NCBI GenBank assembly: GCA_030690165.1
Contig: JAUYHF010000007.1
Coordinates: 26,722-90,721, forward strand
Source of the DNA: Deltaproteobacteria bacterium
GTDB taxonomy: Bacteria; Desulfobacterota; GWC2-55-46; UBA9637
Direction of reading: 5' to 3'
DNA length: 64,000 nt
A program made the position numbers and the translations under genes. Below are positions 6,843-48,396 of this stretch, one piece after another (positions within the stretch are counted from its first letter, which is position 1; each line of letters opens with the position of its first letter). Below the pieces are notes generated by a model. That model searched no databases and was not told the DNA's origin. It was given only the letters and a program-made list of their open reading frames with translations.

Positions 6843-6887
6843 TATTTTTTATTCACCCCTTGATTAACTGTAAACTGTAAAGAACCA

Positions 6888-20392: not shown

Positions 20393-20824
20393 ATGAATAA
20401 AAACCTCAACACAATAGGTAAACTGGCAAAGGCAGTTAATGTTAATGTGCAGACTATTCGCTATTATGAAAGGCTGGGGTTATTAATGCCTGCGGGCAGA
20501 AAGGAATCCTACAGGCAATCCGGATACCGTTTATACGACAAGTTGTCATTGAAGCGGTTACTTTTCATCCGTCATGCAAGGGAATTAGGTTTTACCCTGG
20601 AAGAGATTAAAGAACTTCTTAATCTCAGTGTTAGCCCCACTGCGAAGTGCGGAGATATAAGAAAGAAGGCAGAAGAAAGGCTGATGGATGTTAATAAAAA
20701 GATAGATGGGCTTGAGTCTATGCGAACGATTTTAAAGAGACTGATAAAGAGCTGCATGAGCAGAAAAGATACAGACCCATGTCCAATACTAAAGGCAATT
20801 GATGAAGACGGGTGGCAGGTATGA
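20393..20824 (+). CDS. merR: MerR-family metal-responsive regulator with Hg-type three-Cys spacing
   Basis: N-terminal HTH (IGKLAKAVNVNVQTIRYYERLGLL). Cys at residues 86, 121 and 130, i.e. spacings 35 and 9 as in Tn21/Tn501 MerR C82/C117/C126. Confidence 0.75.
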   Translation: MNKNLNTIGKLAKAVNVNVQTIRYYERLGLLMPAGRKESYRQSGYRLYDKLSLKRLLFIRHARELGFTLEEIKELLNLSVSPTAKCGDIRKKAEERLMDVNKKIDGLESMRTILKRLIKSCMSRKDTDPCPILKAIDEDGWQV

Positions 20825-20860
20825 AGCGATGGTTTATTGTGAAGAAAGGGGGTGAGTAAG

Positions 20861-21109
20861 ATGGCAAGAAAGATAGAGGTCTTCAGTGCCGGATGTCCAA
20901 TCTGCAATGAAACCCTCAAGATGGTAAGGGATGTTACCAAGTCCTGCGGCTGCGAGGTTATTGAGAGGAGATGCAGAGGAGATGTATGCTGTGATGAGGC
21001 TGTAAGGTATGGTGTAAAGACAGTCCCTACCATAGCGGTTGATGGTGTTATAGTTTTTGAGGGCAGACCCACAAAGGAGCAGGCAAGGACAATCCTGGCA
21101 AGGTATTAG
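20861..21109 (+). CDS. small thioredoxin-fold protein (Thioredoxin_3/glutaredoxin-like) with extra Cys pairs
   Basis: MARKIEVFSAGCPICNE...VPTIAVDG pattern, plus CGC and CRGDVCC. ATG 20861 is preferred over GTG 20852 (RBS AAAGGGGG). Confidence 0.7.
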   Translation: MARKIEVFSAGCPICNETLKMVRDVTKSCGCEVIERRCRGDVCCDEAVRYGVKTVPTIAVDGVIVFEGRPTKEQARTILARY

Positions 21110-21170
21110 TATTAAGGGCAAATGGGGCAAAATTCCCATTTGCCCTTAATATCTTTGGGAGGTGAAATCT

Positions 21171-21503
21171 ATGAAGGAAAGACGTGCATCTATTGCAGGT
21201 ATGTTTACCGCGCTTATTGCCGCGAGTTGCTGTATCGGTCCAGCCCTTTTCCTTGCCTTTGGGATAACAGCCTTGGGGTTTCTTACAAGGCTTGAGGTCT
21301 TTAGACCATATCTTCTGATTTTGACATTTGTCCTTGTTGGTATCTCCTACCATTATGTCTATGGCAAGGGTTCAAGGTGCAAAGATGACGAGGTATGCAA
21401 CCCAAGGGCAATAAGGATAAACAGGGTCCTCTTCTGGGTTCTTGTGGGTTTCGCAGTATTCGGGATTAGTTTCCCGTATGTTGCAGCATGGCTGCTGGTT
21501 TAG
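21171..21503 (+). CDS. merT: MerT-like mercuric ion transport membrane protein
   Basis: First TM carries a vicinal Cys pair (LIAASCCIGPALF); second Cys pair in the loop (CKDDEVC). About 110 aa, 3 TM. ATG 21171 after GGGAGG. Confidence 0.7.
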   Translation: MKERRASIAGMFTALIAASCCIGPALFLAFGITALGFLTRLEVFRPYLLILTFVLVGISYHYVYGKGSRCKDDEVCNPRAIRINRVLFWVLVGFAVFGISFPYVAAWLLV

Positions 21504-21525
21504 ATAAAAAAAGGAGGATTTTTTT

Positions 21526-21819
21526 ATGACAAGGTTAGCCGCTATCCTTATCTGTCTGGTCTTTATATCTTCAAACCCTGCAATAGCAGGGGAGGTAAAA
21601 TCTGTTACCCTTGAAGTGAAAGGGATGACATGCAAACTGTGTCCCCCGATGGTAAAGAAGGCGCTAACAGATGTGAAGGGGGTTAAGAAGGTTGATGTAA
21701 GTCTTGAAAAAAAAGAGGCCCATGTGGAATACGAGGATGGGGTAGTAAAACCAGAGGAACTAATCAAGACTATAGATAAAGCAGGTTTTAAAGCATCTTT
21801 ATCAAAGGAAAAGAAATAG
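21526..21819 (+). CDS. merP: MerP-like periplasmic heavy-metal-binding protein (HMA fold)
   Basis: Signal peptide plus VTLEVKGMTCKLCPPMVKKAL (GMTCxxC). Confidence 0.85.
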   Translation: MTRLAAILICLVFISSNPAIAGEVKSVTLEVKGMTCKLCPPMVKKALTDVKGVKKVDVSLEKKEAHVEYEDGVVKPEELIKTIDKAGFKASLSKEKK

Positions 21820-25034: not shown

Positions 25035-25706
25035 ATGAACAAAACCAAACTCTGGTACATAAACGCAAATAAACTCTTCTCCGGACTCTCGGGAAAAAAC
25101 AGGGGCGAAATAGCATCCAAATTAACGGAGATGAATGTTAAGAAAAATGATTTTGTCTACAACGCAGGGGATAAAGCCAAGACCGTCTATGTAGTGAAGG
25201 AAGGCAGGGTCAAAATAATCCGATACTCTCCGGATGGAAGAGAGCTTATAATCGACATCCTTGAACAGGGAGACATATTCGGCGAACTGGCTATGGCCGG
25301 AGAAAAAGAACGGGAAACCGATGCAGTGGCAATGGAAGATTCCTTTATATGCGCTATGCAACGGGGAGATTTTGAAGACCTGCTCGGTCAAATGCCGGGT
25401 CTTTCTCTTAGCATAATAAAATGGATGGGCCTTCGGTTGAGGAGGGTAGAGAACCGTTTTGAGAATATGATCTTTAATGATGTGCGGACGAGACTTATCG
25501 CCCTCTTCAATGACCTGGCTAAAAAATACGGTATGACTGTTAATGATGGAATAAAGATAAAACTTAGATTATCGCACAATGAGATAGCCAGCCTCGTCGG
25601 CGCCACAAGAGAGACGGTCACGCTCGAATTAAACAACCTCAAAAGAAGCGGCAGCATCCTCATGGATGGTAAATATTTTATCCTGCCTCAAAAGCATCTA
25701 TCATAA
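25035..25706 (+). CDS. Crp/Fnr-family transcriptional regulator (copy 1)
   Basis: 223 aa; cNMP-binding beta-roll (VYVVKEGRVKIIRYSPDGRELIIDILEQGDIFGE) plus C-terminal HTH (SHNEIASLVGATRETVTLELNNLKR). Confidence 0.9.
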   Translation: MNKTKLWYINANKLFSGLSGKNRGEIASKLTEMNVKKNDFVYNAGDKAKTVYVVKEGRVKIIRYSPDGRELIIDILEQGDIFGELAMAGEKERETDAVAMEDSFICAMQRGDFEDLLGQMPGLSLSIIKWMGLRLRRVENRFENMIFNDVRTRLIALFNDLAKKYGMTVNDGIKIKLRLSHNEIASLVGATRETVTLELNNLKRSGSILMDGKYFILPQKHLS

Positions 25707-25719
25707 ATTTTTCTGAATT

Positions 25720-25735
25720 TGTAAGTTTCATTACA
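25720..25735. promoter_or_regulatory. CRP-like box TGTAA-N6-TTACA (site 1)
   Basis: TGTAAGTTTCATTACA, perfect 5-bp arms. Lies between crp copy 1 and TVP38 gene 1. Confidence 0.45.
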
Positions 25736-25794
25736 TTTTTACCCTGATTCCTCTGGTATAGTTCAACAATGAAGAACCCCGGTTCAATAAGGAA

Positions 25795-26637
25795 GTGCAA
25801 CACTTAGGAAAGGAAGGTATCCTAAGTGAATGCTGGTTTCATGGATTTTGGAAGTATGTTGAGGAGATTATTGTGAATCAAGATAAGTCGAAAATAACGA
25901 AGAGAAAGGCAAGGTATATTATAGGTGCCTCAATCCTTATCATCATAATTCTTACCAGTTTTGCCCTGCTACCAGACTCTCTCGTGGCATTCCTCGAGCC
26001 AGAGGGGAGCATACAGAGGTGGCTAACCGCCGCTGGGAAGATGGCACCGCTGCTCTTCATTGCAGTAATGGCTTTAACGGTTGCAAGCCCGTTACCGACG
26101 CTTCCCCTGGATATAGCCGCGGGGGCATTATTCGGCCCGTTTCTGGGGACGCTGTATGCTGTGTTTGGCGCTTCTTGTGGAGCCATGATTAATTTTTTTC
26201 TGGCCCGTTATCTTGGGCGAAAATTTATTGAACGTTTTCTCAAGGGGCATATCAATTTTTGCACGATCTGTTCGGACAAACTCGTGGCCCGCCTGATTCT
26301 TATATCCCGACTGGTGCCGGTAATTTCTTTTGACCTGATAAGTTATGGAGCCGGGCTCACGAAAGTTTCTGCCCGGTCCTTTTTTCTGGCGAATTTCTTG
26401 GGCATGATCCCGCTCACGTTGGCCTACACATTGTTAGGCAAGTACGTGACCATCAAACTGTGGATGGCAATTCCCCTGGGGGTAGTCATGGTGGCGCTGT
26501 TTTTTGCCATCCCTTACTGGCTTGAGAAGCATGACCTATTCGGGGTGAGCAAGCTGTTCCGCCATCCAGAAGCCGATCAAGAAAAGCAAACAGGGACACT
26601 TTCAGATATGCTAAAAGACGTCAAAGAAAGGAGGTGA
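25795..26637 (+). CDS. TVP38/TMEM64 (DedA-related, VTT-domain) membrane protein, copy 1
   Basis: PLPTLPLDIAAGALFGPFLGTLYAVFGASCGAMINFFLARYLGRKF...LISRLVPVISFDLISYGAGLT. The true start may be GTG 25873 (after GAGGAG). Confidence 0.8.
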   Translation: MQHLGKEGILSECWFHGFWKYVEEIIVNQDKSKITKRKARYIIGASILIIIILTSFALLPDSLVAFLEPEGSIQRWLTAAGKMAPLLFIAVMALTVASPLPTLPLDIAAGALFGPFLGTLYAVFGASCGAMINFFLARYLGRKFIERFLKGHINFCTICSDKLVARLILISRLVPVISFDLISYGAGLTKVSARSFFLANFLGMIPLTLAYTLLGKYVTIKLWMAIPLGVVMVALFFAIPYWLEKHDLFGVSKLFRHPEADQEKQTGTLSDMLKDVKERR

Positions 26638-26642
26638 ATATT

Positions 26643-26792
26643 ATGGCGGATAAAACTCAAAAAGAAAAGCTTTTTGCCCAATGTTCATGCGGTTCTGGCA
26701 AAAAATATGGAGAATGTTGCGGCAGAAATGAGCCGTGTTCTTGCGGTTCCGGTAAAAAGGCAGGGGAGTGTTGTTTTAAGGCTGCAAAATGA
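26643..26792 (+). CDS. 49-aa protein with two SEC-C-like metal-binding knuckles (not in ORF track)
   Basis: AAGGAGG RBS then MADKTQKEKLFAQCSCGSGKKYGECCGRNEPCSCGSGKKAGECCFKAAK: two CxCGSGKK-x3-CC units. Confidence 0.65.
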   Translation: MADKTQKEKLFAQCSCGSGKKYGECCGRNEPCSCGSGKKAGECCFKAAK

Positions 26793-26849
26793 TGTCAATA
26801 ACATTTTCTGCTATAATAAACCAAACACTAAAACAAAGGAGGATGGACT

Positions 26850-27464
26850 ATGTGTCAAAATTGGAAGAAGATGGTTATAATAGCATTACTGGCATTGCCA
26901 TTGATTATGATGGGAGGTTTTAGAGGGGATGCTCAGGCAGGTGAAAAGAACCCCTGTGCAAAAAATCCTTGCGCCATGAAAAACCCATGCGCCAAGAATC
27001 CATACGCGGCTAATCCATGCGCGGCGAAGAAAGATATGGCAAAAAGTTCAAAACCTATCAGGAAAATAACTATTACCGATAAGGACAAACTCATGAAGCT
27101 GGGCGAGAAACTATGGAATGACACAAAGCTCGGGACATCCGGTGCGGCCTGCGCTTTATGCCATCCCGGTGGCAAGGGTCTGAAGAAAGCCCCGTTTCCA
27201 AAATATCTGAAGATGCCTGATGATATTTTAACCTTAGACCAAATGATAAATTTCTGCATGGAAAACCCCATGAAGGGCAAGCCGCTATCATGGAACTCGA
27301 TAAAGATGACTGCCCTGGCAGCCTATATCCAGGCCAATGCAAAGGAGGAAGGGGAGGGAGGGACGCCTGCAAATCCGTGCGCTGCAAAGAATCCTTGCAT
27401 GATGAAAAACCCCTGTGGTATAAAGAATCCGTGTATGATGAAAAACCCATGCGGGAAGGAGTAG
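26850..27464 (+). CDS. secreted monohaem c-type cytochrome flanked by KNPC cysteine-repeat arms
   Basis: Signal peptide; N-arm GEKNPCAKNPCAMKNPCAKNPYAANPCAAKK; CALCH haem motif; C-arm ANPCAAKNPCMMKNPCGIKNPCMMKNPCGKE; AAGGAGG RBS. Confidence 0.75.
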   Translation: MCQNWKKMVIIALLALPLIMMGGFRGDAQAGEKNPCAKNPCAMKNPCAKNPYAANPCAAKKDMAKSSKPIRKITITDKDKLMKLGEKLWNDTKLGTSGAACALCHPGGKGLKKAPFPKYLKMPDDILTLDQMINFCMENPMKGKPLSWNSIKMTALAAYIQANAKEEGEGGTPANPCAAKNPCMMKNPCGIKNPCMMKNPCGKE

Positions 27465-27495
27465 GCTCTTTTTTAGCCACAGACTTCCATTAACC

Positions 27496-27519
27496 CAGAA
27501 AATGCATTTGCATTTTCTG
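27496..27519. promoter_or_regulatory. 24-bp near-perfect palindrome upstream of the 40-aa ORF
   Basis: CAGAAAATGCA-TT-TGCATTTTCTG (11-bp arms). No T-run follows, so it looks more like a protein-binding site than a terminator. Confidence 0.35.
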
Positions 27520-27549
27520 ACATGAATTGCAAAGAAGGAGGTGAAGACC

Positions 27550-27672
27550 ATGTCTCTTATGTGTCCCATGCAAGGGTGTAAGGAAAAACAGGGTATGTGC
27601 GGCCATGAGAAGGTCATGCTGGGTTTGGTGGGTATCATCGCGCTGGTAGTTTTATTGGTAAAGTTTGCTTAA
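27550..27672 (+). CDS. 40-aa Cys-rich, C-terminally membrane-anchored mini-protein (not in ORF track)
   Basis: AAGGAGG RBS 7 nt upstream; MSLMCPMQGCKEKQGMCGHE followed by the hydrophobic helix KVMLGLVGIIALVVLLVKFA. Confidence 0.5.
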   Translation: MSLMCPMQGCKEKQGMCGHEKVMLGLVGIIALVVLLVKFA

Positions 27673-27757
27673 GTCGGTTGGGCCATAAACGTCTTCATAT
27701 CCCATGAGTTAAGCAAACCAGGTGTCTGCAAATACATAAAAAAAGGAGGTGAAAACT

Positions 27758-28060
27758 ATGTATCGGAACTTTAAAAAAGCAATTGCTGTTGCTTTGGTGA
27801 CATTGCCACTATTTATGTCCGGCGGTTTTAGCAATGTTCAGGCCGAGGAGAAAAATCCCTGTGCAGCTAAAAATCCGTGTATGGCGAAGAATCCTTGCGC
27901 AAAAGGCGCGGCAAAACACGCTAAGGCGGGCGTAAAATATTTGCAGGAGGCCATCAAGCATCTGGAAGAATCTGCTAATGCAGGCGGCGACGCCCATGTT
28001 CAAGAGGCGCTTGACCATGCAAAAGAGGCGCTAAAGCATGCAGAGGCGTCTGGCAAATAA
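27758..28060 (+). CDS. secreted KNPC-repeat protein with SmbP-like His-rich helical domain
   Basis: Signal peptide, EEKNPCAAKNPCMAKNPCAK, then AKHAKAGVKYLQEAIKHLEESANAGGDAHVQEALDHAKEALKHAEASGK. This resembles the small metal-binding protein SmbP repeats. ATG 27758 follows AAAGGAGG. Confidence 0.65.
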   Translation: MYRNFKKAIAVALVTLPLFMSGGFSNVQAEEKNPCAAKNPCMAKNPCAKGAAKHAKAGVKYLQEAIKHLEESANAGGDAHVQEALDHAKEALKHAEASGK

Positions 28061-28085
28061 GGAGAATAGCGCAAGAGAACAATCC

Positions 28086-28111
28086 CCAGCGGGGTAGTCA
28101 TACCCCGCTGG
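28086..28111 (+). terminator. strong hairpin after the SmbP-like gene (no T-run)
   Basis: CCAGCGGGGTA-GTCA-TACCCCGCTGG, 11-bp perfect stem. Confidence 0.4.
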
Positions 28112-28152
28112 AAGATTATGCCATCCATCCTAAGGTTACTGCTATAAAACAT

Positions 28153-28308
28153 AAAAAAAAGGAGGAATTTTATTACAAGGTTGGTTGCTATTCTTCTATT
28201 ACTGGTCTTTATATCTTCAAGCCCTGCAATAGCAGGGGAGGTAAAATCTGTTACCCTTGAAGTGAAAGGGATGACATGTAACCTGTGTCCCCCGATGGTA
28301 AAGAAGGC
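28153..28308 (+). pseudogene. truncated, start-less duplicate of the merP 5' end (RBS plus about 45 codons)
   Basis: Near-identical to 21505-21662, including CTGGTCTTTATATCTTCAA..GGGATGACATG..CTGTGTCCCCCGATGGTAAAGAAGGC. The ATG is changed to ATT (TTTTATTACAAGG vs TTTTTATGACAAGG). Similarity ends at 28308. Confidence 0.8.
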
Positions 28309-28378
28309 TAAAAGATTGACTATTGAAATGAAGGTTATAAATCCATTAGATTATTTTAAAGAAAATCAAATTATAATT

Positions 28379-29062
28379 ATGATTATAAAATCTGCCGAAT
28401 TTATTAAAAGTAGTTCTTCTATTGAGCTTTGCCCTAAAATAACTGCACCTGAATTCGCTTTTATTGGCAGGTCAAATGTTGGCAAATCATCTTTAATAAA
28501 CATGTTGGTTAATAGAACCGGTCTTGCTAAAACCTCAGCAAAACCAGGGAAAACCAGACTAATTAATCACTTTCTTATAAACAAAAGCTGGTATCTGGTT
28601 GATTTGCCGGGATATGGATATGCATCAGCTTCAAAAGTAGAAATTGCAAAATGGAGTAAATTTATTGATGACTACCTTAGTAAAAGAGAAAACCTTGCAT
28701 GCCTTTTTGTGTTAGTTGACTCACGCATTGAACCTCAGAAAATTGACATGGAATTTATAAGTAATTTAAAGTTTCTGGGAGTTCCTTTTGTTCTTATTTC
28801 TACCAAAACTGATAAAATATCAAAACTGAAAATTGAAAGACATATTAAATCATTTAAAAGAGAGCTTATAGAAATGCGGGAGGAGTTGCCAACACACTTT
28901 ATGTCGTCTTCTAAAACTGCTACAGGCCGCAGTGAAATACTATCTCTGATTAAAAAAATCAACAATGAATGGAATCTTGATAAAACAATTGAAGAAGTAA
29001 AAAGAGGTAAAAAAGTGGAGTTAATTGGGGACACATATTCAGAACCGAAAAAGGAGATATAA
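28379..29062 (+). CDS. engB: ribosome-biogenesis GTPase EngB/YihA/YsxC
   Basis: MIIKSAEFIKSS...PEFAFIGRSNVGKSSLIN (G1), DLPGYGY (G3), STKTDK (G4). The listed 293-aa ORF (from 28181) is a read-through from the merP stub. Region is visibly A+T-rich. Confidence 0.85.
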   Translation: MIIKSAEFIKSSSSIELCPKITAPEFAFIGRSNVGKSSLINMLVNRTGLAKTSAKPGKTRLINHFLINKSWYLVDLPGYGYASASKVEIAKWSKFIDDYLSKRENLACLFVLVDSRIEPQKIDMEFISNLKFLGVPFVLISTKTDKISKLKIERHIKSFKRELIEMREELPTHFMSSSKTATGRSEILSLIKKINNEWNLDKTIEEVKRGKKVELIGDTYSEPKKEI

Positions 29063-34920: not shown

Positions 34921-34974
34921 TATGAGCTGTTGTGGAAACTTCTGCAACAAAAATAATTTTACCAGACTATATTT

Positions 34975-34990
34975 TGTAATATAGCATACA
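34975..34990. promoter_or_regulatory. CRP-like box TGTAA-N6-ATACA (site 2), part of a 24-nt repeat
   Basis: TGTAATATAGCATACAGAAAAATT is identical to 35583-35606. Upstream of the AhpD-like gene. Confidence 0.45.
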
Positions 34991-35050
34991 GAAAAATTTT
35001 ATAGATCTCTATAAAATGATTTATATAAATTAAGAAGGAGGTAAATTGCT

Positions 35051-35581
35051 ATGGATAGAATCAAATCTTTAAATAAAAATGTAGCAGCAGGAGAGGTAAA
35101 AGAAATATTGGAAGAGATCGAGAAAAATTTTGGAATGATCCCCAACTTGTTTAAAACCTATGCCCATTTTCTGCCCCTTTTAAAAGCGAATTGGAACAAG
35201 GTAAAAGAAGTAATGATGCAGGGAGACCTGAGCAATAAGGTAAAACAGACCATTGCGGTTCTGGTTTCCAAGGACAATAACTGCAAGTATTGCATAGCCG
35301 CTCATACTGCTGCGTTAAAATCCATTGGGGTTTCAGATGAAGAAATCAAAATAATTGAGGATGATGTCAGACGTTCAGACTTCAGTGAAAAAGAAAAAGC
35401 GATTATCGGTTTTGTCCGGAAAGCGAATCTCGAACCTCTGAAGATTTCCGATGCCGAATTTAATTCGCTCCGACAATCAGGCGCTTCGGACAGCGAAATC
35501 ATTGAGGCACTTGGGGTCATGGAATTATTTACCGGGTTCAACAAGTTCCTCGATTCTCTACAGATCGGTATTGATTTCTAA
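35051..35581 (+). CDS. carboxymuconolactone decarboxylase/AhpD-like family protein
   Basis: 176 aa; NNCKYCIAAHT (CxxC-x2-H AhpD-type motif). Confidence 0.8.
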   Translation: MDRIKSLNKNVAAGEVKEILEEIEKNFGMIPNLFKTYAHFLPLLKANWNKVKEVMMQGDLSNKVKQTIAVLVSKDNNCKYCIAAHTAALKSIGVSDEEIKIIEDDVRRSDFSEKEKAIIGFVRKANLEPLKISDAEFNSLRQSGASDSEIIEALGVMELFTGFNKFLDSLQIGIDF

Positions 35582-35582
35582 A

Positions 35583-35598
35583 TGTAATATAGCATACA
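35583..35598. promoter_or_regulatory. CRP-like box TGTAA-N6-ATACA (site 3), upstream of crp copy 2
   Basis: Same 24-nt word as 34975-34998. Confidence 0.45.
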
Positions 35599-35632
35599 GA
35601 AAAATTCAATAATAAGGTGTAGTATTATTATC

Positions 35633-36316
35633 ATGAATAAACTCTGGTACCTAAAACAATGCGATATATTTAGCGGTATGGATAAAGATAAATTAGATAA
35701 AATCAACGATATTGCAAAAGAAAGGCATATCCCTAAGAATGAATTTATCTATTCCGCTCAGGACAAAGATGATCGGATGTTTATTCTTAAAAAAGGGAGG
35801 GCAAGGATTTTTAAGGTCTCAGCAGATGGTAAAATGATTACCTTATCTATTCTGAGAGAAGGAGATATTTTTGGAAGGATGTCAGCAGTAAGAGGAGGAA
35901 CCTCCGGGGCCTACGCCGAGACTTTAGAGGATTCCTATATCTGTGTAATCCATCAGGATGATTTTCATAATGCAGTTAAGGAGATGCCGGAGATTGCATT
36001 GAGATTGATCGAATTAATAAACCATAGGCTAAAAGAGGCAGAGGATAGAATAGAAGATTTGGTTTTCCGTAATATCCCTGGCAGAATTGCAGGTATCCTT
36101 TTGAAACTGGCTGAACAGTTTGGAAAAGATACCAGTGAAGGGATTCAGATTAATTTCAAGATTACTCATCAGGAATTGGCTGATATGGTTGGAGCCACAC
36201 GCGAAACCGTTACTATTATTTTAAATGACTTTAAGAATGATAACTTGATAAAGATAAGTGAAAAATATATCACCATAATTGATGAGAAGATATTAAAAGA
36301 ATGGGCTGGAAGGTGA
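35633..36316 (+). CDS. Crp/Fnr-family transcriptional regulator (copy 2)
   Basis: 227 aa; cNMP-binding domain plus HTH (THQELADMVGATRETVTIILNDFKN). Paralogous to 25035-25706. Confidence 0.9.
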   Translation: MNKLWYLKQCDIFSGMDKDKLDKINDIAKERHIPKNEFIYSAQDKDDRMFILKKGRARIFKVSADGKMITLSILREGDIFGRMSAVRGGTSGAYAETLEDSYICVIHQDDFHNAVKEMPEIALRLIELINHRLKEAEDRIEDLVFRNIPGRIAGILLKLAEQFGKDTSEGIQINFKITHQELADMVGATRETVTIILNDFKNDNLIKISEKYITIIDEKILKEWAGR

Positions 36317-41497: not shown

Positions 41498-42610
41498 ATG
41501 GGTATAGCACTTCTTTTTCTGGCCACTTTATTCCTGGCCTATTTTAACGGGGCAAATGATAATTTTAAAGGTGTGGCCACACTCTTCGGAAGTAAGACCA
41601 TAAATTATAGGGACTCTTTATATTTGGCCACCATAACCACCCTTGCCGGTGCTCTTTGTTCTGTTTACATATCCTTCTCTCTTATTAAAATTTTCTCAGG
41701 AAAAGGGCTTGTTCCGGATAGTATTGCGGCCTCTCCTGAATTCTTATCAACTGTGGCCATAGGCGCAGGATTAACAATAATGCTTGCCACCCTGACCGGT
41801 TTCCCTGTCTCTACCACGCATAGTTTAACCGGAGCCTTGATTGGCGCCGGTTTTATGGCTATCGGCACACAGATAAATCTCAATACCCTGATTAACTCCT
41901 TCCTTCTCCCTCTTTTATTAAGCCCGTTAATCTCTGTTTCTCTCTCTGCCCTGCTTTATGCAGGATTACATTATCTGCGAATACAGGCCGACGTATGCAA
42001 GGAGTGGTGTGTTTGCGTAGGAGAGACGGAGCAACTGATCCCCATCCTTCAACCAAATTCTCTCGCGTGCCTTGAAGGTATAAAGGGGATAGATGCCTCT
42101 ATCGGCACAGTAGACGAATGTAAGGAGAGATACACAGGTAAATTTATAGGGATCGAATATCAGAAACTGATAGACCTGCTCCATATCTTTAGCGCCGGAA
42201 GTGTGAGTTTCGCAAGGGGATTAAATGATACCCCAAAGATTGTGGCCTTGCTTATGACGGCTTCAGTATTTGATATCAAATATGGGATCATGGCGATTGC
42301 CGCAGGGATGGCTATGGGTGGGATTCTTAATGCCCATAAGGTGGCGCAGACGATGAGCAAAAAGATTGTCCCATTGAACCCGGGACAGGGATTTGTTGCA
42401 AACCTTACCACCGCCATACTTGTGTTTTTTGCGAGCAGAGCCGGTCTGCCGGTATCCACTACCCATGTCTCGGTTGGTTCTATCTCCGGCATTGGTCTCA
42501 TTAATAAAAAGGTGAACATAAAGATCATTTCAGATATTTTGCTGGCATGGATATTAACCTTACCGGTATCAGCTATTCTCAGTGCGGGTATTTATTTGGC
42601 ATTAAAATAA
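41498..42610 (+). CDS. PiT/PHO4-family anion (phosphate/sulfate-type) transporter
   Basis: Two PHO4 repeats (GANDNFKGVATLFGS; ARGLNDTPK). The central loop has five Cys (CKEWCVCVG...ACLEG...DEC). Confidence 0.8.
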   Translation: MGIALLFLATLFLAYFNGANDNFKGVATLFGSKTINYRDSLYLATITTLAGALCSVYISFSLIKIFSGKGLVPDSIAASPEFLSTVAIGAGLTIMLATLTGFPVSTTHSLTGALIGAGFMAIGTQINLNTLINSFLLPLLLSPLISVSLSALLYAGLHYLRIQADVCKEWCVCVGETEQLIPILQPNSLACLEGIKGIDASIGTVDECKERYTGKFIGIEYQKLIDLLHIFSAGSVSFARGLNDTPKIVALLMTASVFDIKYGIMAIAAGMAMGGILNAHKVAQTMSKKIVPLNPGQGFVANLTTAILVFFASRAGLPVSTTHVSVGSISGIGLINKKVNIKIISDILLAWILTLPVSAILSAGIYLALK

Positions 42611-42627
42611 TCTTAAGGGGGATAACC

Positions 42628-44049
42628 ATGGAAGAATTTGATCTGACTATAATCGGCGGAGGTGTGGGCGGCCTGGTTGCGGCAAGCGGCGCAAGCCAGT
42701 TCGGGGCAAAGGTGGCCTTAGTGGAGAAAGAGAATCTGGGTGGAGATTGTCTCCATTATGGTTGTGTGCCCACAAAGACCCTTGTCCATTCTGCAAGGCT
42801 TATCTCTCTTATGCGCAGGGCTACGGAGTTTGGCCTGAACCCTGTAACGGTGGATTTTGAATTTAAGAAGATAATGGAGCATATGCGTGAGGTGCAAAAA
42901 AAGGTAGGGGAGCATGATGACCCTAAACGCTTTGAGAAGATGGGGATAAAATTATTTTTTGGAAAGGGAGGGTTTAAGGATACCCGGACATTTGAGGTAA
43001 ACGGCACAAACATAAAAAGCAGGAAATTTCTTATCGCCACCGGTTCCCGACCGGTAAAATTGCCGATCCCTGGTCTGGACAAAGTAGATAGCTTGGACAA
43101 CATAAAGATATTGGCCATTAATCACCTTCCTGAGTCCATTCTGATAATGGGCGCTGGACCAATCGGCATGGAATTTGCCCAGGTCTTCAGCAGATTTGGT
43201 TCAAAGGTAACAGTAATTGAGAAGGCAGGTCAGATCCTTCCGAGAGAAGAAAAGGAGCTCTCAGATAGATTAGAAGGGATATTAAAGAGGGAAGGTATGG
43301 AAATCATTACCTGTGTTGAGACCAAAAGGGTAGAACAGTCTGGGAATAAAAGGATAGTAGTGGCTGAGTGCAGCGGTAAAGAAAAGAGATTTGAGGCAGA
43401 CGAACTCTTAGTTGCCATAGGAAGGGCGCCGAATATCGAAGGTATGAACCTTGAAAAGATAGGGGTTAAAACTACCTCAAAGGGGATAGTAGTTAATGAT
43501 ACCATGAAGACTACAGTCTCCAATATCTGGGCATGCGGTGATGTTACGGGAATGTTTCCATTTACCCATATGGCGGAATATGAGGCCGGAATAGTAATCG
43601 GGAACGCCCTCTTTCCATTTGTAAATAGAAAGATGGATAAGACAGTAGTCCCCTGGACGACCTTTACTGATCCTGAGCTTGCCCGTGTTGGTCTGACAGA
43701 GGATGAGGCAAGAAAGGAATATGGGGATATCAGGGTCTACAGATACCCCTTCTCTGAACATGACCGCGCAATAATAGACGGAGAAACAGAGGGGATGATC
43801 AAACTTATATGTGACAAGAAAGGTAAAATATTAGGCGCCCATATCCTTGGAAAGGGCGCAGGGGATCTGCTAAATGAATATACCTTTGCTATGAAGAATG
43901 GTCTTCCGGTGCAGAAGATATCACAGACCGTCCATGTATATCCGACAATGGGGCAGGTAGTAAAGAGGGGCGCGGACCAGTATTATAAGGAAAGGCTATT
44001 TTCCGGCTGGTTTCCAAAGGTGGCAAGGTTTTTAATGAAATTTAAATAA
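42628..44049 (+). CDS. class I pyridine nucleotide-disulfide oxidoreductase (dihydrolipoyl dehydrogenase/'mercuric reductase-like' group)
   Basis: DLTIIGGGVGGLVAA, redox CxxxxC (GGDCLHYGCVPTK), second Rossmann motif (ILIMGAGPIGMEFA), dimerisation domain. No NmerA domain and no C-terminal Cys pair. ATG 42628 is preferred over the listed 42547. Confidence 0.8.
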   Translation: MEEFDLTIIGGGVGGLVAASGASQFGAKVALVEKENLGGDCLHYGCVPTKTLVHSARLISLMRRATEFGLNPVTVDFEFKKIMEHMREVQKKVGEHDDPKRFEKMGIKLFFGKGGFKDTRTFEVNGTNIKSRKFLIATGSRPVKLPIPGLDKVDSLDNIKILAINHLPESILIMGAGPIGMEFAQVFSRFGSKVTVIEKAGQILPREEKELSDRLEGILKREGMEIITCVETKRVEQSGNKRIVVAECSGKEKRFEADELLVAIGRAPNIEGMNLEKIGVKTTSKGIVVNDTMKTTVSNIWACGDVTGMFPFTHMAEYEAGIVIGNALFPFVNRKMDKTVVPWTTFTDPELARVGLTEDEARKEYGDIRVYRYPFSEHDRAIIDGETEGMIKLICDKKGKILGAHILGKGAGDLLNEYTFAMKNGLPVQKISQTVHVYPTMGQVVKRGADQYYKERLFSGWFPKVARFLMKFK

Positions 44050-44073
44050 AAAGAGGTAGAACAGGTAGAACAG

Positions 44074-46080
44074 ATGGAACTAATAGATAAGATGGTAGAT
44101 GTGATGAAAAATAAGATAAAGGTTATTCAGATAAATCTGGGTGATAAATGCAATCTGCGATGCGCTCACTGCCATATTGAGGCTTCTCCGGAAGGAAACA
44201 GAAATATGGATTCCAATACAGCAATGAAGGTCATCAAAAGATTAATCGAGACAGATATCAAAGATATTGAATTCACCGGCGGGGCGCCTGAATTAAACCC
44301 TAATCTGCGGCTCTTTATCGAAGAGCTCTCCAGCCATAATAAAAATCTGACTGTAAGGACTAACCTGACTGTGCTCGACTCACCTGCCTATTCCCTTTAC
44401 ATTGATCTATATAAAAAATATAAGGTGAAGGTCATTGCCTCTCTGCCCGACATATTTCCTGATACTACTGATAAGCAAAGAGGAAAGGGTGTTTTCCAAA
44501 AGAGTATAAATGTCCTGAATAGACTTAATGCGATTGGTTACGGGAGAGATGGCCTGTTATTAGACCTCGTGTATAACCCGGTAGGAGATTATCTGCCGCC
44601 TGACCAAAACGAGATTGAGAATAATTATAAAAGGTTATTGAAAGAGAGATATGACATCACCTTTAACAATCTTATACCCATTGTTAACTCGCCCATTAAG
44701 AGATTTAAGGAATCTCTTCAACAGACAGGCAGGTTAGAAGAATATCTAAAACTGCTTAAAAAGAGTTACAACCCTGCCACAATAGATAAGCTAATGTGCA
44801 GGAATCTGATTTCTATTGATTATAGGGGTTATGCCTACGACTGCGATTTTAATCTGGCCTTAGGTATGAAGACTAAAGGTTATGAAGACAGGAAATTCTG
44901 GGAGATAGACCTGCACAATTTTAATCAGGAGATCACCTTTGGGCAACATTGTTATGCCTGTACTGTTAATATGGGGAGCTCTTGCCATGGTGTTCTGATA
45001 AAAGAGGAGGAATCCAGACCAATGGGATTTGTTATGAAAGAAAATGTAAAGAGATATTATGGTGAAGAGTTGCAAAAGACCTCTGACTTAAAGACAGGGG
45101 CGTGCTGCAGCGCTGATCTTATCCCGGATTATGTTAAAGATGCGCTTATGCTGATAAATGATGAAATAAAGATGAAATATTACGGATGCGGCTCGCCTAT
45201 CCCGCTTTGCGTCGAGGGTTTGAATGTGCTTGATATGGGCTGTGGCACAGGGAGGGATAGTTATGTCATGTCAAAACTTGTAGGAGAGAATGGCTTTGTC
45301 TATGGTGTTGATATGACGGAAAATCAGGTAGGTATCGCCAAAAGATACATTAAAGAACAGACCGATAGATTCGGATACAAAAAGCCGAATATAGAGTTTA
45401 TCCTCGATAATATGGAAAATATAACCAAACACCTTAAAGAAGAATCAATAGATCTGGTAATCTCCAATTGCGTAATAAATCTGTCTGAGGATAAGGAGGC
45501 GGTCCTGAAGGCAATATTTAATGTCTTGAAGTGGGGAGGGGAATTTTATTTTTCCGATGTTTATGCAGACAGGAGGGCGCCTGACGAGATAAGGAAAGAC
45601 CCGCTTCTTTTTGCCGAGTGTCTTGGAGGGGCTTTGTATTATAAAGATTTTGTGCGGATAGCAAGAATATCCGGTTTCACTGATCCGCGCATTATATCTC
45701 AAAGGGAGATTCCTATTACAAATCCGGAGATTAGCAGTCTCACAGGCAATCTCAGATTCTATTCTATAACCTATCGCCTCTGGAAATTGGAAGGGCTTGA
45801 AGATGCCTGCGAGGATTACGGGCATATGGCCGTCTATAGAGGCGGAATCCCTGTATCACCATTCCGGTTTGAACTTGACGGCTCCCATATTTTTTATACA
45901 AACAAACCTGAACGTGTATGCGGTAATACTGCGCTGATGTTATCCAAGACAAGATTTGGCAGATATTTTGAAATAATCGGTGATTTAAAGGAACACTTCG
46001 GAGAATTCAAGGAATGCGGCACACCAGATAAATCTGATAGTAATAATAAAAATAGTAGTGTTCAGAGGGGATGTTGTTAG
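44074..46080 (+). CDS. fusion protein: ArsS-like radical-SAM (arsenosugar-type) N-half plus ArsM arsenite S-adenosylmethionine methyltransferase C-half
   Basis: One 668-aa ORF. N-half: CNLRCAHC (Cx3Cx2C), TGGAPELNP, LMCRNLISIDYRGYAYDCDFN, HCYACTVNMGSSCHG. C-half: YYGEELQKTSDLKTGACCS, YYGCGSPIP, VLDMGCGTGRD, SNCVINLSEDK. Ends ..VQRGCC. Confidence 0.8.
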   Translation: MELIDKMVDVMKNKIKVIQINLGDKCNLRCAHCHIEASPEGNRNMDSNTAMKVIKRLIETDIKDIEFTGGAPELNPNLRLFIEELSSHNKNLTVRTNLTVLDSPAYSLYIDLYKKYKVKVIASLPDIFPDTTDKQRGKGVFQKSINVLNRLNAIGYGRDGLLLDLVYNPVGDYLPPDQNEIENNYKRLLKERYDITFNNLIPIVNSPIKRFKESLQQTGRLEEYLKLLKKSYNPATIDKLMCRNLISIDYRGYAYDCDFNLALGMKTKGYEDRKFWEIDLHNFNQEITFGQHCYACTVNMGSSCHGVLIKEEESRPMGFVMKENVKRYYGEELQKTSDLKTGACCSADLIPDYVKDALMLINDEIKMKYYGCGSPIPLCVEGLNVLDMGCGTGRDSYVMSKLVGENGFVYGVDMTENQVGIAKRYIKEQTDRFGYKKPNIEFILDNMENITKHLKEESIDLVISNCVINLSEDKEAVLKAIFNVLKWGGEFYFSDVYADRRAPDEIRKDPLLFAECLGGALYYKDFVRIARISGFTDPRIISQREIPITNPEISSLTGNLRFYSITYRLWKLEGLEDACEDYGHMAVYRGGIPVSPFRFELDGSHIFYTNKPERVCGNTALMLSKTRFGRYFEIIGDLKEHFGEFKECGTPDKSDSNNKNSSVQRGCC

Positions 46081-47245: not shown

Positions 47246-47587
47246 ATGAGTATTTCAAAGACAGTTATTGCAGCGCTTTTTTTGGTTTTGCTCGTTACAG
47301 TTCCTGCCATGGCAGATGAAAAGAAAGAGACAAAAAATCCATGTGGCATGATGGGTGGGCACGGCATGATGGGCGGGAAGGGGATGATGGGTGAAGGCAT
47401 GATGGGCGGGATGCATGAAGGCATGATGGGCATGATGAAGGAGATGATGGGGATGATGAAGGAGATGATCCATACCCCAACCGATGCCCAGAAAAAGAGG
47501 CTGGACGAGATGATGATGAAGATGGATGGGATGATGAAGATGCATGACGAGATGATGAAGAAAAAGATGGAAAAGAAGGGGATGTAG
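47246..47587 (+). CDS. secreted Met-rich protein with an N-terminal KNPC motif
   Basis: AAAGGAGG RBS; signal peptide ..VPAMA; DEKKETKNPCGMMGGHGMMGGKGMMGEGMMGGMHEGMMGMMKEMMGMMKEM...MMMKMDGMMKMHDEMMKKKM. Confidence 0.7.
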   Translation: MSISKTVIAALFLVLLVTVPAMADEKKETKNPCGMMGGHGMMGGKGMMGEGMMGGMHEGMMGMMKEMMGMMKEMIHTPTDAQKKRLDEMMMKMDGMMKMHDEMMKKKMEKKGM

Positions 47588-47751: not shown

Positions 47752-48396
47752 ATGATTGAATTTATCAAACCTGTCAGGTATGGAATTTTAGTCGGCCTTC
47801 TTGGACTTACCTTTGGCGTCGGCTGGGCGTTCTGGCTTGTGCTTGGACATGAGAGTATACATAGGAGCTTTGAAGAAAGTGTTGTTGAAAAAAAAGATAC
47901 GCATAGCCTTATTCAGCTATTAGAACCCGGTAATGCTCAGGCCCACGGGCCAGAGGAAGTAAAACCCCGGCAACAAGATGAACATGCGGATATGATGAAG
48001 GAAGGGGAGCAGATGATGCCAATCTCGGAAGAAGATGAACATCAGCACGGTGAAGATATGCATGATAACCCCATTATGCAACTTGCCCATGAGAGACTCC
48101 GAAGGGGGCATATCCATGGTATGGGGTTGGGTCTTCTTACTATCGCAGTATCTTTCATTCTTGCGTTTACCAGCGCATCTGAGAGGATAAAAACCATAGC
48201 CCCTGTCCTTGCTGGGATTGGCGGGATTCTCTACCCCTTTGCATGGATTGTAATGGGCTACAGGACACCGGGCCTTGGGCCTGACGCAGCAGCGGCATCT
48301 GTGAGAATGATTGCCGGGATAGGAACTGCCCTTGTGCTTCTTGGAATTTTTACAGCAGGGGTTTTTCTTTTAAAAGATATTTTACAGAAAAGATGA
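47752..48396 (+). CDS. 4-TM membrane protein with His/Glu/Met-rich loop
   Basis: TM1, then ..HGPEEVKPRQQDEHADMMKEGEQMMPISEEDEHQHGEDMHDNP..RRGHIHG, then three TMs. No family recognised. Confidence 0.55.
   Translation: MIEFIKPVRYGILVGLLGLTFGVGWAFWLVLGHESIHRSFEESVVEKKDTHSLIQLLEPGNAQAHGPEEVKPRQQDEHADMMKEGEQMMPISEEDEHQHGEDMHDNPIMQLAHERLRRGHIHGMGLGLLTIAVSFILAFTSASERIKTIAPVLAGIGGILYPFAWIVMGYRTPGLGPDAAAASVRMIAGIGTALVLLGIFTAGVFLLKDILQKR

Follow-up and report, generated by a model that had tools for sequence, protein, structure and literature searches.

We analysed a 64-kb stretch of DNA (hereafter the window) in which the interval from 25.7 to 28.1 kb is one operon of five genes, situated behind a conserved CRP-type operator. 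All five genes lie on the + strand and encode, in order, a DedA/VTT-domain membrane protein, a 49-aa mini-protein with SEC-C motifs, a secreted monohaem cytochrome c, a 40-aa membrane mini-protein (mini40) and a secreted His-rich protein related to SmbP. The cytochrome and the SmbP-related protein share a Lys-rich arm with one cysteine per 5-6 residues and Asn-Pro before each Cys, hereafter the NPC arm.

Upstream of the operon, a CRP/FNR-family regulator (25035..25706, + strand) has a cNMP-binding domain and HTH_Crp_2 (Pfam) and a single Cys, the FNR-type Cys cluster being absent; orthologues with 39-72% identity are encoded 1-4 kb 5' of the NPC cytochrome in ~12 loci. A second CRP paralogue in the window adjoins an AhpD-like gene. 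The operator-like palindrome TGTAAGTTTCATTACA (25720..25735), of the form TGTAA-N6-TTACA, is the unique perfect site in the window and has a -10-like TATAGT at 25757-25762 on its 3' side. Together the two elements look like a class II CRP/FNR-type promoter, at which a regulator of this family would bind and activate transcription. The exact site is present exactly once in 18 of 157 fetched loci, and of the 14 such loci with checked NPC coordinates, 13 have it 5' of the NPC gene(s), whereas in L052 it falls inside the NPC ORF as called.

The first gene of the operon (25795..26637, +; Pfam VTT_dom, 2.5e-26) ends with its stop codon 5 nt 5' of the start of the SEC-C ORF. DedA genes are likewise found near the NPC cytochrome in L003, L018, L023, L025, L060 and L061, the one in L003 being fused to an FAD oxidoreductase. 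The preliminary description of this DNA had listed four successive same-strand ORFs, each with its own ribosome-binding site, and indeed a GGAGG(TG) site precedes each of the four ORFs from 26643 to 28060 by 6-9 nt. Between the cytochrome and mini40 genes lies a palindrome with perfect arms, GAAAATGCA-TT-TGCATTTTC (27498..27517), which occurs once in the window against 0.04 matches expected by chance. A GC-rich, 13-bp hairpin 3' of the last gene (28084..28113) likely marks the end of the operon; its role as a terminator is putative, because the scan match is on the minus strand and the + strand has no clear T-tract.

The third gene encodes a secreted NPC-armed monohaem cytochrome c of 204 aa (26850..27464, +; PF21342, 9e-15). 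A signal peptide with an AQA/G site, assigned by sequence inspection (26850-26939), is followed by an N-terminal arm of 4 NPC and 1 NPY units (26940-27029), a core domain (~27057-27347) and a C-terminal arm of 5 NPC units (27357-27461). The CALCH haem motif (aa 101-105; 27150-27164) is the only such motif in the protein, so that the arrangement noted beforehand, a single CALCH between two KNPC-repeat arms, is what the gene encodes. The core scores 54.9 bits with PF21342 against a cutoff of 27, and the same Pfam entry is precomputed on 119 of 120 homologues among the matches listed, from a homologue search that gave 203 clusters. Profile matches are to SoxA (1H31, 4e-12) and TsdA (9e-4). Residues C101, C104, H105 and C136 are invariant in 31 sequences, and Cys136 (27255-27257) falls in the alignment at the position of the axial Cys in SoxA haem 1 (the MINAC Cys) and of Cys96 in TsdA. 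Structure prediction of the core, proposed earlier as a check, agrees with this: AF2 gives pLDDT 86-97 over most of the core (72-73 at aa 111-130; <50 in the arms), and the best 13 Foldseek matches are all TsdA or SoxA, with probability 1.0 and E from 7e-4; the disorder of half of the model keeps the TM-scores low. By profile and by predicted fold, the core is a SoxA/TsdA-type domain, and its haem is predicted from the alignment to be His/Cys-ligated. The preliminary assignment of haem c stands, and the protein is no generic electron carrier. In the alignment the active-site Arg of TsdA and SoxA is not found in the core, which has Met at C-4 as in the non-catalytic haem 1 of SoxA. The protein has a single haem, with neither the second haem nor the SoxX partner of the SoxAX/TsdA functional class, no sox genes were found among the window regions scanned or the loci examined, and soxXYZB, psr or similar sulfur genes do not occur nearby.

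The last gene of the operon encodes a second secreted NPC-armed protein (27758..28060, +). Its signal peptide, again placed by inspection (27758-27844), is followed directly by the arm EEKNPCAAKNPCMAKNPCAK with 3 NPC units (27845-27904) and then by a His-rich helical hairpin in the AF2 model (27905-28057). That an arm here precedes a His-rich, SmbP-like helical domain had been claimed from the outset and is borne out by a 6-sequence profile, which matches SmbP 3U8V with E 1.4e-10; by itself the protein falls below the gathering score of Pfam SMBP (PF16785; E 6e-4, 20.3 bits vs cutoff 29). Since the query aligns to each of the two repeats of SmbP, we regard the domain as one SmbP repeat and call the protein half-SmbP; on the profile alignments, homology to a single repeat is clear. 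The AF2 model shows a single hairpin (helices 46-74 and 79-98, pLDDT ~90; arm aa 20-45 mostly <50) in place of the two-hairpin four-helix bundle of SmbP. Foldseek with this model was uninformative and returned generic helical hairpins only. The fusion appears to be rare, as the homologue search gave 4 clusters only. In one of them (P0123) there are arms at both ends, and its gene occupies the operon slot of the cytochrome in L071, a sign of modularity. A further secreted, Met-rich protein (47246..47587, +) had been put forward as an example of the arm joined to methionine chemistry. A KNPC does follow its signal peptide directly, but the case rests on that one unit, possibly a coincidence; with no family match and no tblastn match in 70 related loci (L001-L070), its membership in the arm family is doubtful.

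The two mini-proteins are likewise as first described. The 49-aa ORF (26643..26792, +) encodes a cytoplasmic mini-protein with two SEC-C zinc-knuckle motifs (CxCGSGKKxGxCC), matched by PF02810 in two stretches with E 4e-11 and 42.9 bits against a cutoff of 20.4. Together with its ribosome-binding site it is kept directly 5' of an NPC protein in 9 genome loci and in L071 and L081, and its Cys pattern is invariant in 10 orthologues. The 40-aa ORF, mini40 (27550..27672, +), reads MSLMCPMQGCKEKQGMCGHE, comprising a Cys3His head (MSLMCPMQGCKEKQGMCGHEK), and continues as a single hydrophobic transmembrane helix; it has no Pfam or NCBIfam match. It too is kept with its ribosome-binding site, in L012, L014, L017 and a Burkholderiales MAG (L075), with NPC genes adjoining every time. 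The conservation test suggested for these ORFs thus came out in their favour: dN/dS is ~0.13 (0.12 for the SEC-C protein and 0.14 for mini40), and on this comparison both are under purifying selection and co-inherited with NPC genes.

The arms of the operon's two NPC proteins hold 12 NPC tripeptides in total; in the remaining 63 kb of the window there are 24 in all six frames, with ~9 expected for the whole window. Lone NPC tripeptides occur by chance too. The repeat is not a product of chance, since in 107 of 115 homologous cytochromes the haem motif has NPC units both before and after it. Successive units are 5 or 6 residues apart in 1440 of 1724 pairs, the copy number among close cytochrome homologues ranges from 1 to 20, and the arms are predicted to be disordered. 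Among 1.84e9 representatives, a standalone NPC query retrieved 274 clusters, and the 35-aa window arm alone retrieved 59. Arm-only standalone proteins are the commonest class (85/260). Elsewhere the arms are joined to SoxA-like cytochrome, SmbP, YHS, DUF5666-like and TPR cores, and further to cytochrome P460, redoxin, LysM, DM13 and rhodanese. The database search and tabulation of fused domains recommended in the preliminary description therefore bear out its view of one arm grafted onto several cores, on a far wider scale than claimed (>270 clusters, many core types): the NPC arm is a modular element, usually found on both sides of a small periplasmic core. Its suspicion that the arm belongs to no characterised family also holds, as the repeat is unnamed in Pfam, NCBIfam and the searched literature and NCBIfam has no model for arm-only NPC proteins; matches of homologues to PF25052 (defensin-like), Extensin and Cornifin were set aside as low-complexity artefacts. 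The proteins come from groundwater, sediment, vent and soil bacteria and from a few cultured marine Gammaproteobacteria.

To ask what accompanies the NPC genes, we surveyed their neighbours in 63 genome loci, 55 of which, with an NPC cytochrome, served for the count that follows. A pentahaem cytochrome is encoded directly downstream of the NPC cytochrome in 42 of these 55 loci, and it is this MccSep-like protein, not metal genes, that is the conserved neighbour; by tblastn there is none in the window. In the reverse direction, NPC genes lie upstream in 20 of 52 metagenomic pentahaem loci only, so the linkage is not obligatory. The best solved relative of the pentahaem partner, albeit a distant one (E 2e-8), is MccSep, a polysulfide/selenite reductase with a His/Cys haem from Geobacter sulfurreducens (PDB 9WT8; PMC13510729). 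When 43 partner sequences are aligned with MccSep, all five CxxCH motifs match, as does an Ig-like domain at the C-terminus together with its GHxxP loop. The catalytic residues of MccSep are not found in the partner family: C239 is Leu in 40/43, U325 is Val or Ala in 39/43, and the R83 loop is deleted in 43/43. Because catalytic residues are missing, the homology of both the pentahaem and the SoxA-like core to sulfur enzymes is one of scaffolds, not of active sites. Other recurrent neighbours are a TlpA-like redoxin (~18 loci), rhodanese (one with an NPC tail), YeeE, DsbD_TM, PiT, DedA and ArsS/ArsM. With partners such as these, a role in thiol, chalcogen or metalloid redox fits at least as well as metal-cation capture.

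Tentatively, and at somewhat below even probability, we favour a model in which NPC arms are redox-serviced poly-thiol swinging arms that capture thiophilic cargo and present it to haem centres. The model starts from the gene structure, conservation, core homology, arm disorder, gene linkage and operator, each of which is directly supported; that the haem has His/Cys ligands, that the arms bind cargo or undergo redox reactions, and what the cargo is, we infer. The dedicated CRP-family regulator would drive the operon, and the two NPC-arm proteins would be exported. Their arms would take up thiophilic cargo either by forming S-S, S-Se or S-As bonds or through coordination by thiolates, and haem centres would move electrons to or from the cargo so presented. 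In the Sox system, a SoxA/TsdA-type haem makes or breaks bonds on the cysteine of a carrier protein; here, the predicted His/Cys haem of this type would be fused to cysteine arms of its own. In most genomes the electrons would pass via the MccSep-like pentahaem of the adjoining downstream gene, while oxidised arms would be returned to their reduced state by TlpA-type reductases. Family-wide, the cargo is most likely sulfane sulfur or a thiophilic oxyanion or metalloid (polysulfide, selenite, As(III)/thioarsenic). The pentahaem may have been lost from the module in this window, or may never have been part of it. This module probably serves metal(loid) defence, given its His-rich SmbP version and its position inside a metal/metalloid island. 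We count against our favoured model that the SmbP and YHS cores and the contexts of L071, L075, L014 and L025 favour metal cations, that active-site residues of the sulfur enzymes are missing from the SoxA-like core and the pentahaem alike, that this window has no pentahaem and most metagenomic pentahaem loci no NPC genes upstream, and that sulfur genes of the soxXYZB or psr kind are not found nearby.

These observations lead to the alternative that the proteins form a soft-metal buffer or chaperone, which we hold possible, if rather doubtful. The arms would serve as metallothionein-like thiolate ligands for periplasmic Cu(I), Hg(II), Ag/Au or Cd, with haem, SmbP or YHS cores adding a second ligand set or reducing Cu(II)/Hg(II), and haem partners and TlpA repairing metal-catalysed thiol oxidation. 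The mer/cop/cus/ars surroundings on which the preliminary description built its soft-metal reading are present: the window contains a Cus-like RND system, a YHS-type P-type ATPase, MerR-MerT-MerP, CopZ-like and HMA genes, and merP repeats bracket the operon on both sides. An assembly chimera at the merP repeat is unlikely, as the copies are only 91% identical. Some relatives also have copper or mercury genes nearby, with a P-type ATPase and MerR at L014, MerR and MerT at L025, and CusB, OEP, ArsR and CopD at L071. In L075 the copper-defence operon bufA1-bufB-bufC-doxX, itself behind an ECF sigma factor, has mini40 and an NPC gene on its upstream side and a pentahaem on its downstream side. SmbP and YHS cores bear arms, and a Lys-plus-Cys composition is typical of metallothioneins. 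This part of the soft-metal reading stands, but a family-wide link to metals is not supported: such genes are near NPC loci in a minority (~6 of ~70), and a Pfam census of flanking genes found no enrichment of HMA, P-type ATPase or Cus among the best 25 families. Moreover, CxC and CxxC pairs are missing from the arms, a sponge would have no need of a SoxA-type haem, pentahaem, rhodanese or YeeE, and control lies with a CRP-type regulator, not with MerR, CueR, ArsR or CsoR.

A more specific version of our carrier model, which we consider unlikely, is that NPC arms act in trans as cysteine 'cofactor arms', supplying the nucleophilic Cys that the MccSep-like pentahaem lacks, having neither C239 nor Sec325. 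Arms, pentahaem and a SoxA-type His/Cys haem would then make up a periplasmic enzyme system that is split between proteins and relies on a carrier for the redox reactions of S-S, S-Se or S-As bonds, with polysulfide/S0, selenite/tellurite or thioarsenic as candidate substrates. It would have a CRP-type regulon and two mini-proteins of its own and would extend across uncultured Desulfobacterota, Nitrospirota and Nitrospinota and some Gammaproteobacteria.

It is quite improbable, in our view, that the arms protect the periplasm from oxidants or nitrosative stress as a renewable thiol buffer, their sacrificial thiols being oxidised or S-nitrosylated and re-reduced by TlpA/CcdA and haem proteins. 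CRP/FNR-family control, the recurrence of TlpA/AhpC-TSA, thioredoxin and DsbD_TM among the neighbours, arms on a cytochrome P460 core, a hybrid-cluster protein and hemerythrin near L007, and the AhpD-like gene next to the second CRP paralogue would all suit such a buffer; it leaves unexplained the SmbP/YHS cores, the linkage to rhodanese, YeeE and PiT and the tethering to specific cores, and no peroxidase-type residues were seen. We give still less credence to the idea that the arms are substrates of post-translational modification, as precursors of Sec-exported, RiPP-like metallophores comparable to bufferins and EGKCG oxazolins. By inspection, NPC proteins do combine a Sec signal peptide with a core of short Cys-containing repeats with Lys, as oxazolins do; the NPC gene of L075 directly precedes bufA1 and an MNIO gene; and there is a 'CxxxxC' precursor family with Sec signal peptides, listed by accession (PMC12452194). 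Yet the arms are joined to folded domains of up to 400 aa and no maturase is conserved nearby. When the window and 156 loci were searched by tblastn with L075 queries, BufA1, MbnB, BufC and DoxX were found only at L075, nor were adjacent MNIO (MbnB_TglH_ChrH) and DUF2063 partner genes found beyond it, and on account of this confinement of bufferin/MNIO genes to one locus we rank the reading low. Lastly, a tether or assembly tag with no carrier role, holding proteins by disulfide or metal bridges to a surface (metal-sulfide, S0 or Se0 particle, cell envelope) or to each other, would suit multivalent, basic, disordered arms shared by such different proteins of one pathway as redoxin, rhodanese, cytochromes, TPR and LysM, but is highly improbable with arm-only proteins, an odd form for a tag, as the commonest class.

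Whatever the cargo, hundreds of protein clusters share one repeat that has no database name, and this repeat goes with two haem families whose sole characterised relatives, SoxA/TsdA and the recently described MccSep, act on sulfur and selenium bonds at cysteines. Should the cargo be sulfane sulfur, selenium or arsenic, the arms would represent a new periplasmic carrier system with relevance to how S, Se and As cycle in aquifers. Soft-metal binding would make them an exported, cytochrome-serviced metal buffer of a new class, and a function as cofactor arms would give a new counterpart to SoxYZ-type carrier chemistry. The system offers parts that can be tested: its operator is defined, its two mini-proteins are conserved, its cores are interchangeable, and there are cultured hosts, among them Motiliproteus sp. 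MSK22-1 and Oceanisphaera, which have NPC, NPC-cytochrome and pentahaem or DUF6969 genes.

The closest known counterparts of the cytochrome are SoxA (in SoxAX) and TsdA, His/Cys-ligated c-type cytochromes of thiosulfate oxidation, with which it shares PF21342 above cutoff, the fold found by Foldseek, CxxCH and a Cys at the axial ligand position; it differs in being one domain with one haem and no SoxX, in having Met for the active-site Arg, in its flanking arms and in the lack of nearby sox genes. Half-SmbP shares a homologous His-rich helical repeat with SmbP of Nitrosomonas europaea (PDB 3U8V), but with one hairpin for two, a score that alone is below the Pfam cutoff, and a cysteine arm that SmbP lacks. 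The 49-aa ORF resembles SEC-C proteins (the SecA C-terminal zinc-binding domain, YchJ) in its two motifs above the Pfam cutoff, yet here the double motif stands by itself, without a further domain, and the gene keeps company specifically with NPC genes. Like metallothioneins and bacterial Cys-rich metal stores, the arms are Cys- and Lys-rich and of low complexity; unlike them, they are exported, their cysteines are regularly spaced at 5-6 residues without CxC/CxxC clusters, and they are linked to haem proteins. The pentahaem partner shares five CxxCH, the Ig-like domain and the GHxxP loop with MccSep/ExtKL, but has neither the haem-ligating C239, nor Sec/Cys325, nor the substrate-binding R83 loop, and it is absent from the window. 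The concept closest to our carrier model is SoxY, a folded protein that ends in a GGCGG swinging arm whose single Cys carries sulfur intermediates: in both, a flexible arm cysteine would act as covalent carrier served by a SoxA-type haem, whereas NPC proteins have 3-26 Cys in disordered repeats, are haem-fused or arm-only, and show no sequence similarity to SoxY. Bufferins and EGKCG 'oxazolins', finally, are Sec-exported, Cys-containing, copper-binding RiPPs (PMC11626156, PMC12452194); NPC proteins resemble them in their Sec signal peptide, short repeats with one Cys plus Lys/Gly, periplasmic location and, at L075, an NPC gene within a bufferin operon, but elsewhere NPC genes occur without MNIO or DUF2063, and their arms flank folded domains.

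The four ORFs of the window operon lie on the + strand where the preliminary description had placed them, each preceded by a GGAGG(TG) site that was also recovered as a DNA repeat family (D4). The first, of 49 aa (26643-26792), contains two SEC-C motifs above the Pfam cutoff; the second, of 204 aa (26850-27464), is the NPC cytochrome, with a signal peptide ending in AQA before a Gly, a single CALCH, and four NPC units and one NPY before the haem domain and five NPC units after it. These are followed by a 40-aa ORF with a Cys3His head and one hydrophobic helix (mini40; 27550-27672) and by a 100-aa ORF (27758-28060) encoding the SmbP-like protein, in which a signal peptide resembling that of the cytochrome leads into three NPC units and a His-rich helical part. 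The exported proteins carry disordered, basic arms with evenly spaced cysteines (NPC arms), and the window arms hold 12 NPC tripeptides, against 24 across all six frames of the other 63 kb. A fifth protein (47246-47587), previously joined to this set, does carry KNPC, but only once, and we treat its family link as unproven. A palindrome unique in the window, GAAAATGCATTTGCATTTTC (27498-27517), separates the cytochrome and mini40 genes.

The module has a private regulator and operator. A CRP/FNR-family regulator gene, whose product contains just one Cys and lacks an FNR-type cluster, stands upstream of a DedA/VTT gene that ends 5 nt before the SEC-C start codon. Between regulator and DedA lies TTGTAAGTTTCATTACAT (25719-25736), the sole perfect TGTAA-N6-TTACA site of the window, with TATAGT 21 nt downstream, an arrangement matching that of a class II CRP/FNR-type promoter; we infer that a CRP-type regulator binds and activates there. 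Because of this promoter arrangement, the upstream regulator, the DedA/SEC-C spacing and a GC-rich hairpin 3' of the last gene (28084-28113), we read 25.77-28.1 kb as one transcript comprising DedA, SEC-C, cytochrome, mini40 and SmbP-like genes. Nine other loci share both this palindrome and the downstream CTGATATAGTT after the orthologous regulator. In its exact form the box is present in 18 of the 157 loci fetched from other genomes and metagenomes (L001-L157), one copy in each; of the 14 with comparable NPC gene coordinates, 13 have it 5' of the NPC gene(s), the exception being L052, where it falls inside the NPC ORF as called.

Where the window has DedA, five loci (L007, L022, L025, L028 and L049) carry a further conserved element between the box and the SEC-C or cytochrome gene. 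The reading was made by eye on the DNA, with no ORF called: in frame, four loci give '...C(I/V)(T/I)(L/F)KKGE...', and L049 gives TLKKE, with no in-frame Gly. Elsewhere in the window, a second CRP/FNR paralogue (35633-36316) stands beside an AhpD-like gene (35051-35581), which is flanked by TGTA-N8-TACA-like sites (34974-34991 and 35582-35599).

Both mini-ORFs are genes, and their conservation in related loci, about which the preliminary description had asked, is evident. The SEC-C protein, with its RBS, directly precedes an NPC protein in nine genome loci (64-84% identity) and also in L071 and L081, while mini40 recurs in L012, L014, L017 and a Burkholderiales MAG (L075, 60% identity), adjoined by NPC genes each time. 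Median dN/dS was 0.12 for SEC-C and 0.14 for mini40, with dS saturated. All four genes are present in L014, in a different order.

The arm itself belongs to a large and modular family. Homologues of the NPC cytochrome form 203 clusters, with 1 to 20 NPC copies, and in 107 of the 115 examined the units lie on both sides of the haem motif. As sole query, the 35-aa C-arm of the window cytochrome retrieved 59 representatives among 1.84 billion proteins; a standalone NPC protein retrieved 274 clusters. Besides the 115 SoxA-like cytochromes, the 260 sequences examined include 85 secreted proteins, 59-135 aa long, that consist of the arm alone. The units recur every 5 or 6 residues, most often as (K/A)NPCAA. 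That one arm is grafted onto different cores, as first proposed, now extends to many further cores: DUF5666-like beta domains with arms on both flanks, YHS, cytochrome P460, TPR, LysM, DM13, AhpC/TSA redoxin and SmbP domains, and one rhodanese with an NPC tail. Nor had a characterised family been recognised for the arm, and this holds: the repeat matched no Pfam or NCBIfam model, the motif was not found printed in the literature searched, and annotated members are named only 'hypothetical protein', 'cytochrome c' or similar. The hosts are mainly MAGs of Deltaproteobacteria/Thermodesulfobacteriota, Nitrospirae, Nitrospinota, Tectomicrobia and Zetaproteobacteria; the few with species or strain names (Motiliproteus sp. 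MSK22-1, Oceanisphaera and Onishia) are presumably cultured.

The haem core is of SoxA/TsdA type (PF21342, 54.9 bits). A profile of 31 homologues matches the first haem domain of SoxA (1H31, E 4e-12) and TsdA (E 9e-4), which are also the best structural matches of the AlphaFold model (pLDDT 86-97 over most of the core, dipping to 72-73 near aa 111-130; both arms below 50), and an invariant Cys136, in DQMINFCMxNPM, aligns with the haem-ligating Cys of both. The catalytic haems of TsdA and SoxA have Arg four residues before the ligand Cys, whereas the window cytochrome has Met, as does SoxA haem 1. By its active-site residues and partners, the domain is therefore a family member outside the SoxAX/TsdA enzyme class. 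A SoxA-like remnant (…PMASKPLPWESRDLAALTAY…; 6745-7000) between mini40 and the NPC gene of L075, a Burkholderiales bufferin locus, suggests that the cytochrome gene has decayed there.

For the SmbP-like protein, a six-sequence profile matches SmbP (3U8V, E 1.4e-10) at each of its two repeats, and the window protein is therefore predicted to be one hairpin, half of SmbP; in its model, two helices reach pLDDT about 90 and the arm is disordered. Only four homologue clusters were found, one of which (P0123) has arms at both ends. In L071, P0123 lies between the SEC-C gene and a five-haem cytochrome, the slot taken elsewhere by the SoxA-like cytochrome, with ArsR and CopD following; arms and partners are thus retained where the core is exchanged.

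That five-haem cytochrome is the principal partner. When flanking ORFs from 63 genome loci were clustered de novo, a single neighbour dominated: a cytochrome of 380-440 aa containing five CxxCH motifs (the pentahaem). Among the 55 loci with enough sequence, 42 have it immediately downstream and on the same strand; no pentahaem gene was found in the window. The closest relative of the pentahaem among solved structures is MccSep/ExtKL of Geobacter sulfurreducens (E 2e-8; the NCBIfam ExtKL model matches at 7e-19, below cutoff), which reduces polysulfide and selenite in the periplasm and whose active site comprises His/Cys-ligated haem 2 (C239), Sec325 and R83 (PMC13510729). The five haem motifs of MccSep all align in 43 NPC-linked pentahaems, but C239 is replaced by Leu, the R83 loop is deleted, and the U325 position, inside an invariant GH(Y/F)FPTY(V/A)TP, is occupied by Val or Ala. 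In these alignments the pentahaem shares the scaffold of MccSep and not its catalytic residues. The linkage does not hold equally in both directions: the pentahaem family numbers at least 564 metagenomic relatives, and NPC genes lie upstream in only 20 of 52 metagenomic loci with upstream sequence.

This MccSep-like family without C239, Sec325 and R83 (L077-L156) is abundant and itself uncharacterised. Where NPC genes are absent, its upstream partners include TlpA-like redoxins, and L136 has an upstream YeeE gene and a rhodanese ending ...KKVSNPCAL. Two gammaproteobacterial loci lack a pentahaem and have a DUF6969 protein downstream of their NPC genes, in L003 (10951-11691) immediately after the NPC cytochrome and in L157 (8147-8848) beyond an unannotated 246-aa protein.

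Tight linkage also extends to thiol reductases. TlpA/ResA-type redoxins lie near NPC genes in about 18 loci, and standalone NPC proteins just upstream in about 20; rhodanese, DsbD_TM and YeeE/YedE recur, as do PiT transporters (10 loci) and DedA (7 loci). ArsS, ArsM-like, DUF2064 and GT2 genes occur in L003, L005, L023, L025, L066 and L157, and also in the window, at a distance of 17 kb. In the window, 41498-46080 encodes a PiT-family transporter, a FAD disulfide oxidoreductase (MerA-like, below cutoff) and an ArsS (arsenosugar radical SAM, above cutoff)::ArsM-like methyltransferase fusion; genes of these kinds adjoin the NPC cytochrome in L003, L005, L018, L025 and L066, with DUF2064 and GT2 genes also in its neighbourhood in L003 and L157.

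The metal context reported for the window was recovered: around the operon are a Cus-like RND system, a P-type ATPase with YHS domains, CopZ-like and HMA proteins, MerR, a thioredoxin-like gene, MerT and MerP, with the PiT, oxidoreductase and ArsS::ArsM genes farther away. Metal genes also lie near the module in L014, L024, L025, L062 and L071. The MerR, thioredoxin-like (MJ0307/ArsE type), MerT and MerP genes form a cluster at 20393-21819 that lacks a MerA gene. A duplication at 91% identity covers the initial ~140 nt of merP together with its RBS (21522-21662 and 28168-28308); the second copy stops after ...CPPMVKKA and continues in frame into a YsxC/EngB GTPase ORF (28181-29062). The intervening 6.6 kb hold CopZ-like, HMA, outer-membrane, NHL, CRP and DedA genes and the NPC operon, and GC at 22-26 kb is 0.51, compared with about 0.42 in the vicinity. 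The arrangement has the look of a metal island's right-hand border or of a scar left by recombination. At 47752-48396, a membrane protein of 214 aa carries a loop rich in His, Glu and Met and matched no family; its 56%-identical homologue lies directly 3' of a P-type ATPase in L014.

We propose that the arms would act as poly-thiol swinging arms holding thiophilic cargo, and that the haem proteins would pass electrons to or from thiol-bound cargo or arm disulfides. SoxAX acts on an arm cysteine of SoxY, a parallel for a haem core that has a conserved ligand-position Cys and stands beside NPC arms, and the Cys/Sec chemistry of MccSep offers a second. From these parallels, with support from the rhodanese, YeeE, PiT, DedA and ArsS/ArsM partners, we tentatively favour sulfane sulfur, selenite or arsenic species as cargo. 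Capture of soft metals, as originally suggested, remains a strong if somewhat less likely rival: SmbP and YHS cores carry arms, the window operon sits between two merP copies at a metal-island edge, and Mer, CopD and bufferin contexts recur, with L075 ordered mini40, NPC gene, bufA1-bufB-bufC-doxX, pentahaem (bufA1-bufB-bufC-doxX being a copper-binding RiPP operon; PMC11626156). An oxidant or NO thiol buffer, a RiPP-like precursor and a tether are lesser rivals.

The cores of the module are new members of known families. In the resources searched, the arm repeat, its modular use, both mini-proteins and the operator are not described, and likewise the linkage of the arms to a MccSep-like pentahaem without the catalytic residues. 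One caveat is the 'CxxxxC' family, defined as 76 Sec-exported putative MNIO substrates (PMC12452194), with which NPC proteins may overlap. Exported Cys-rich carriers or binders are a known kind of protein, and there is a genuine possibility that the NPC arms are a new carrier system among them.
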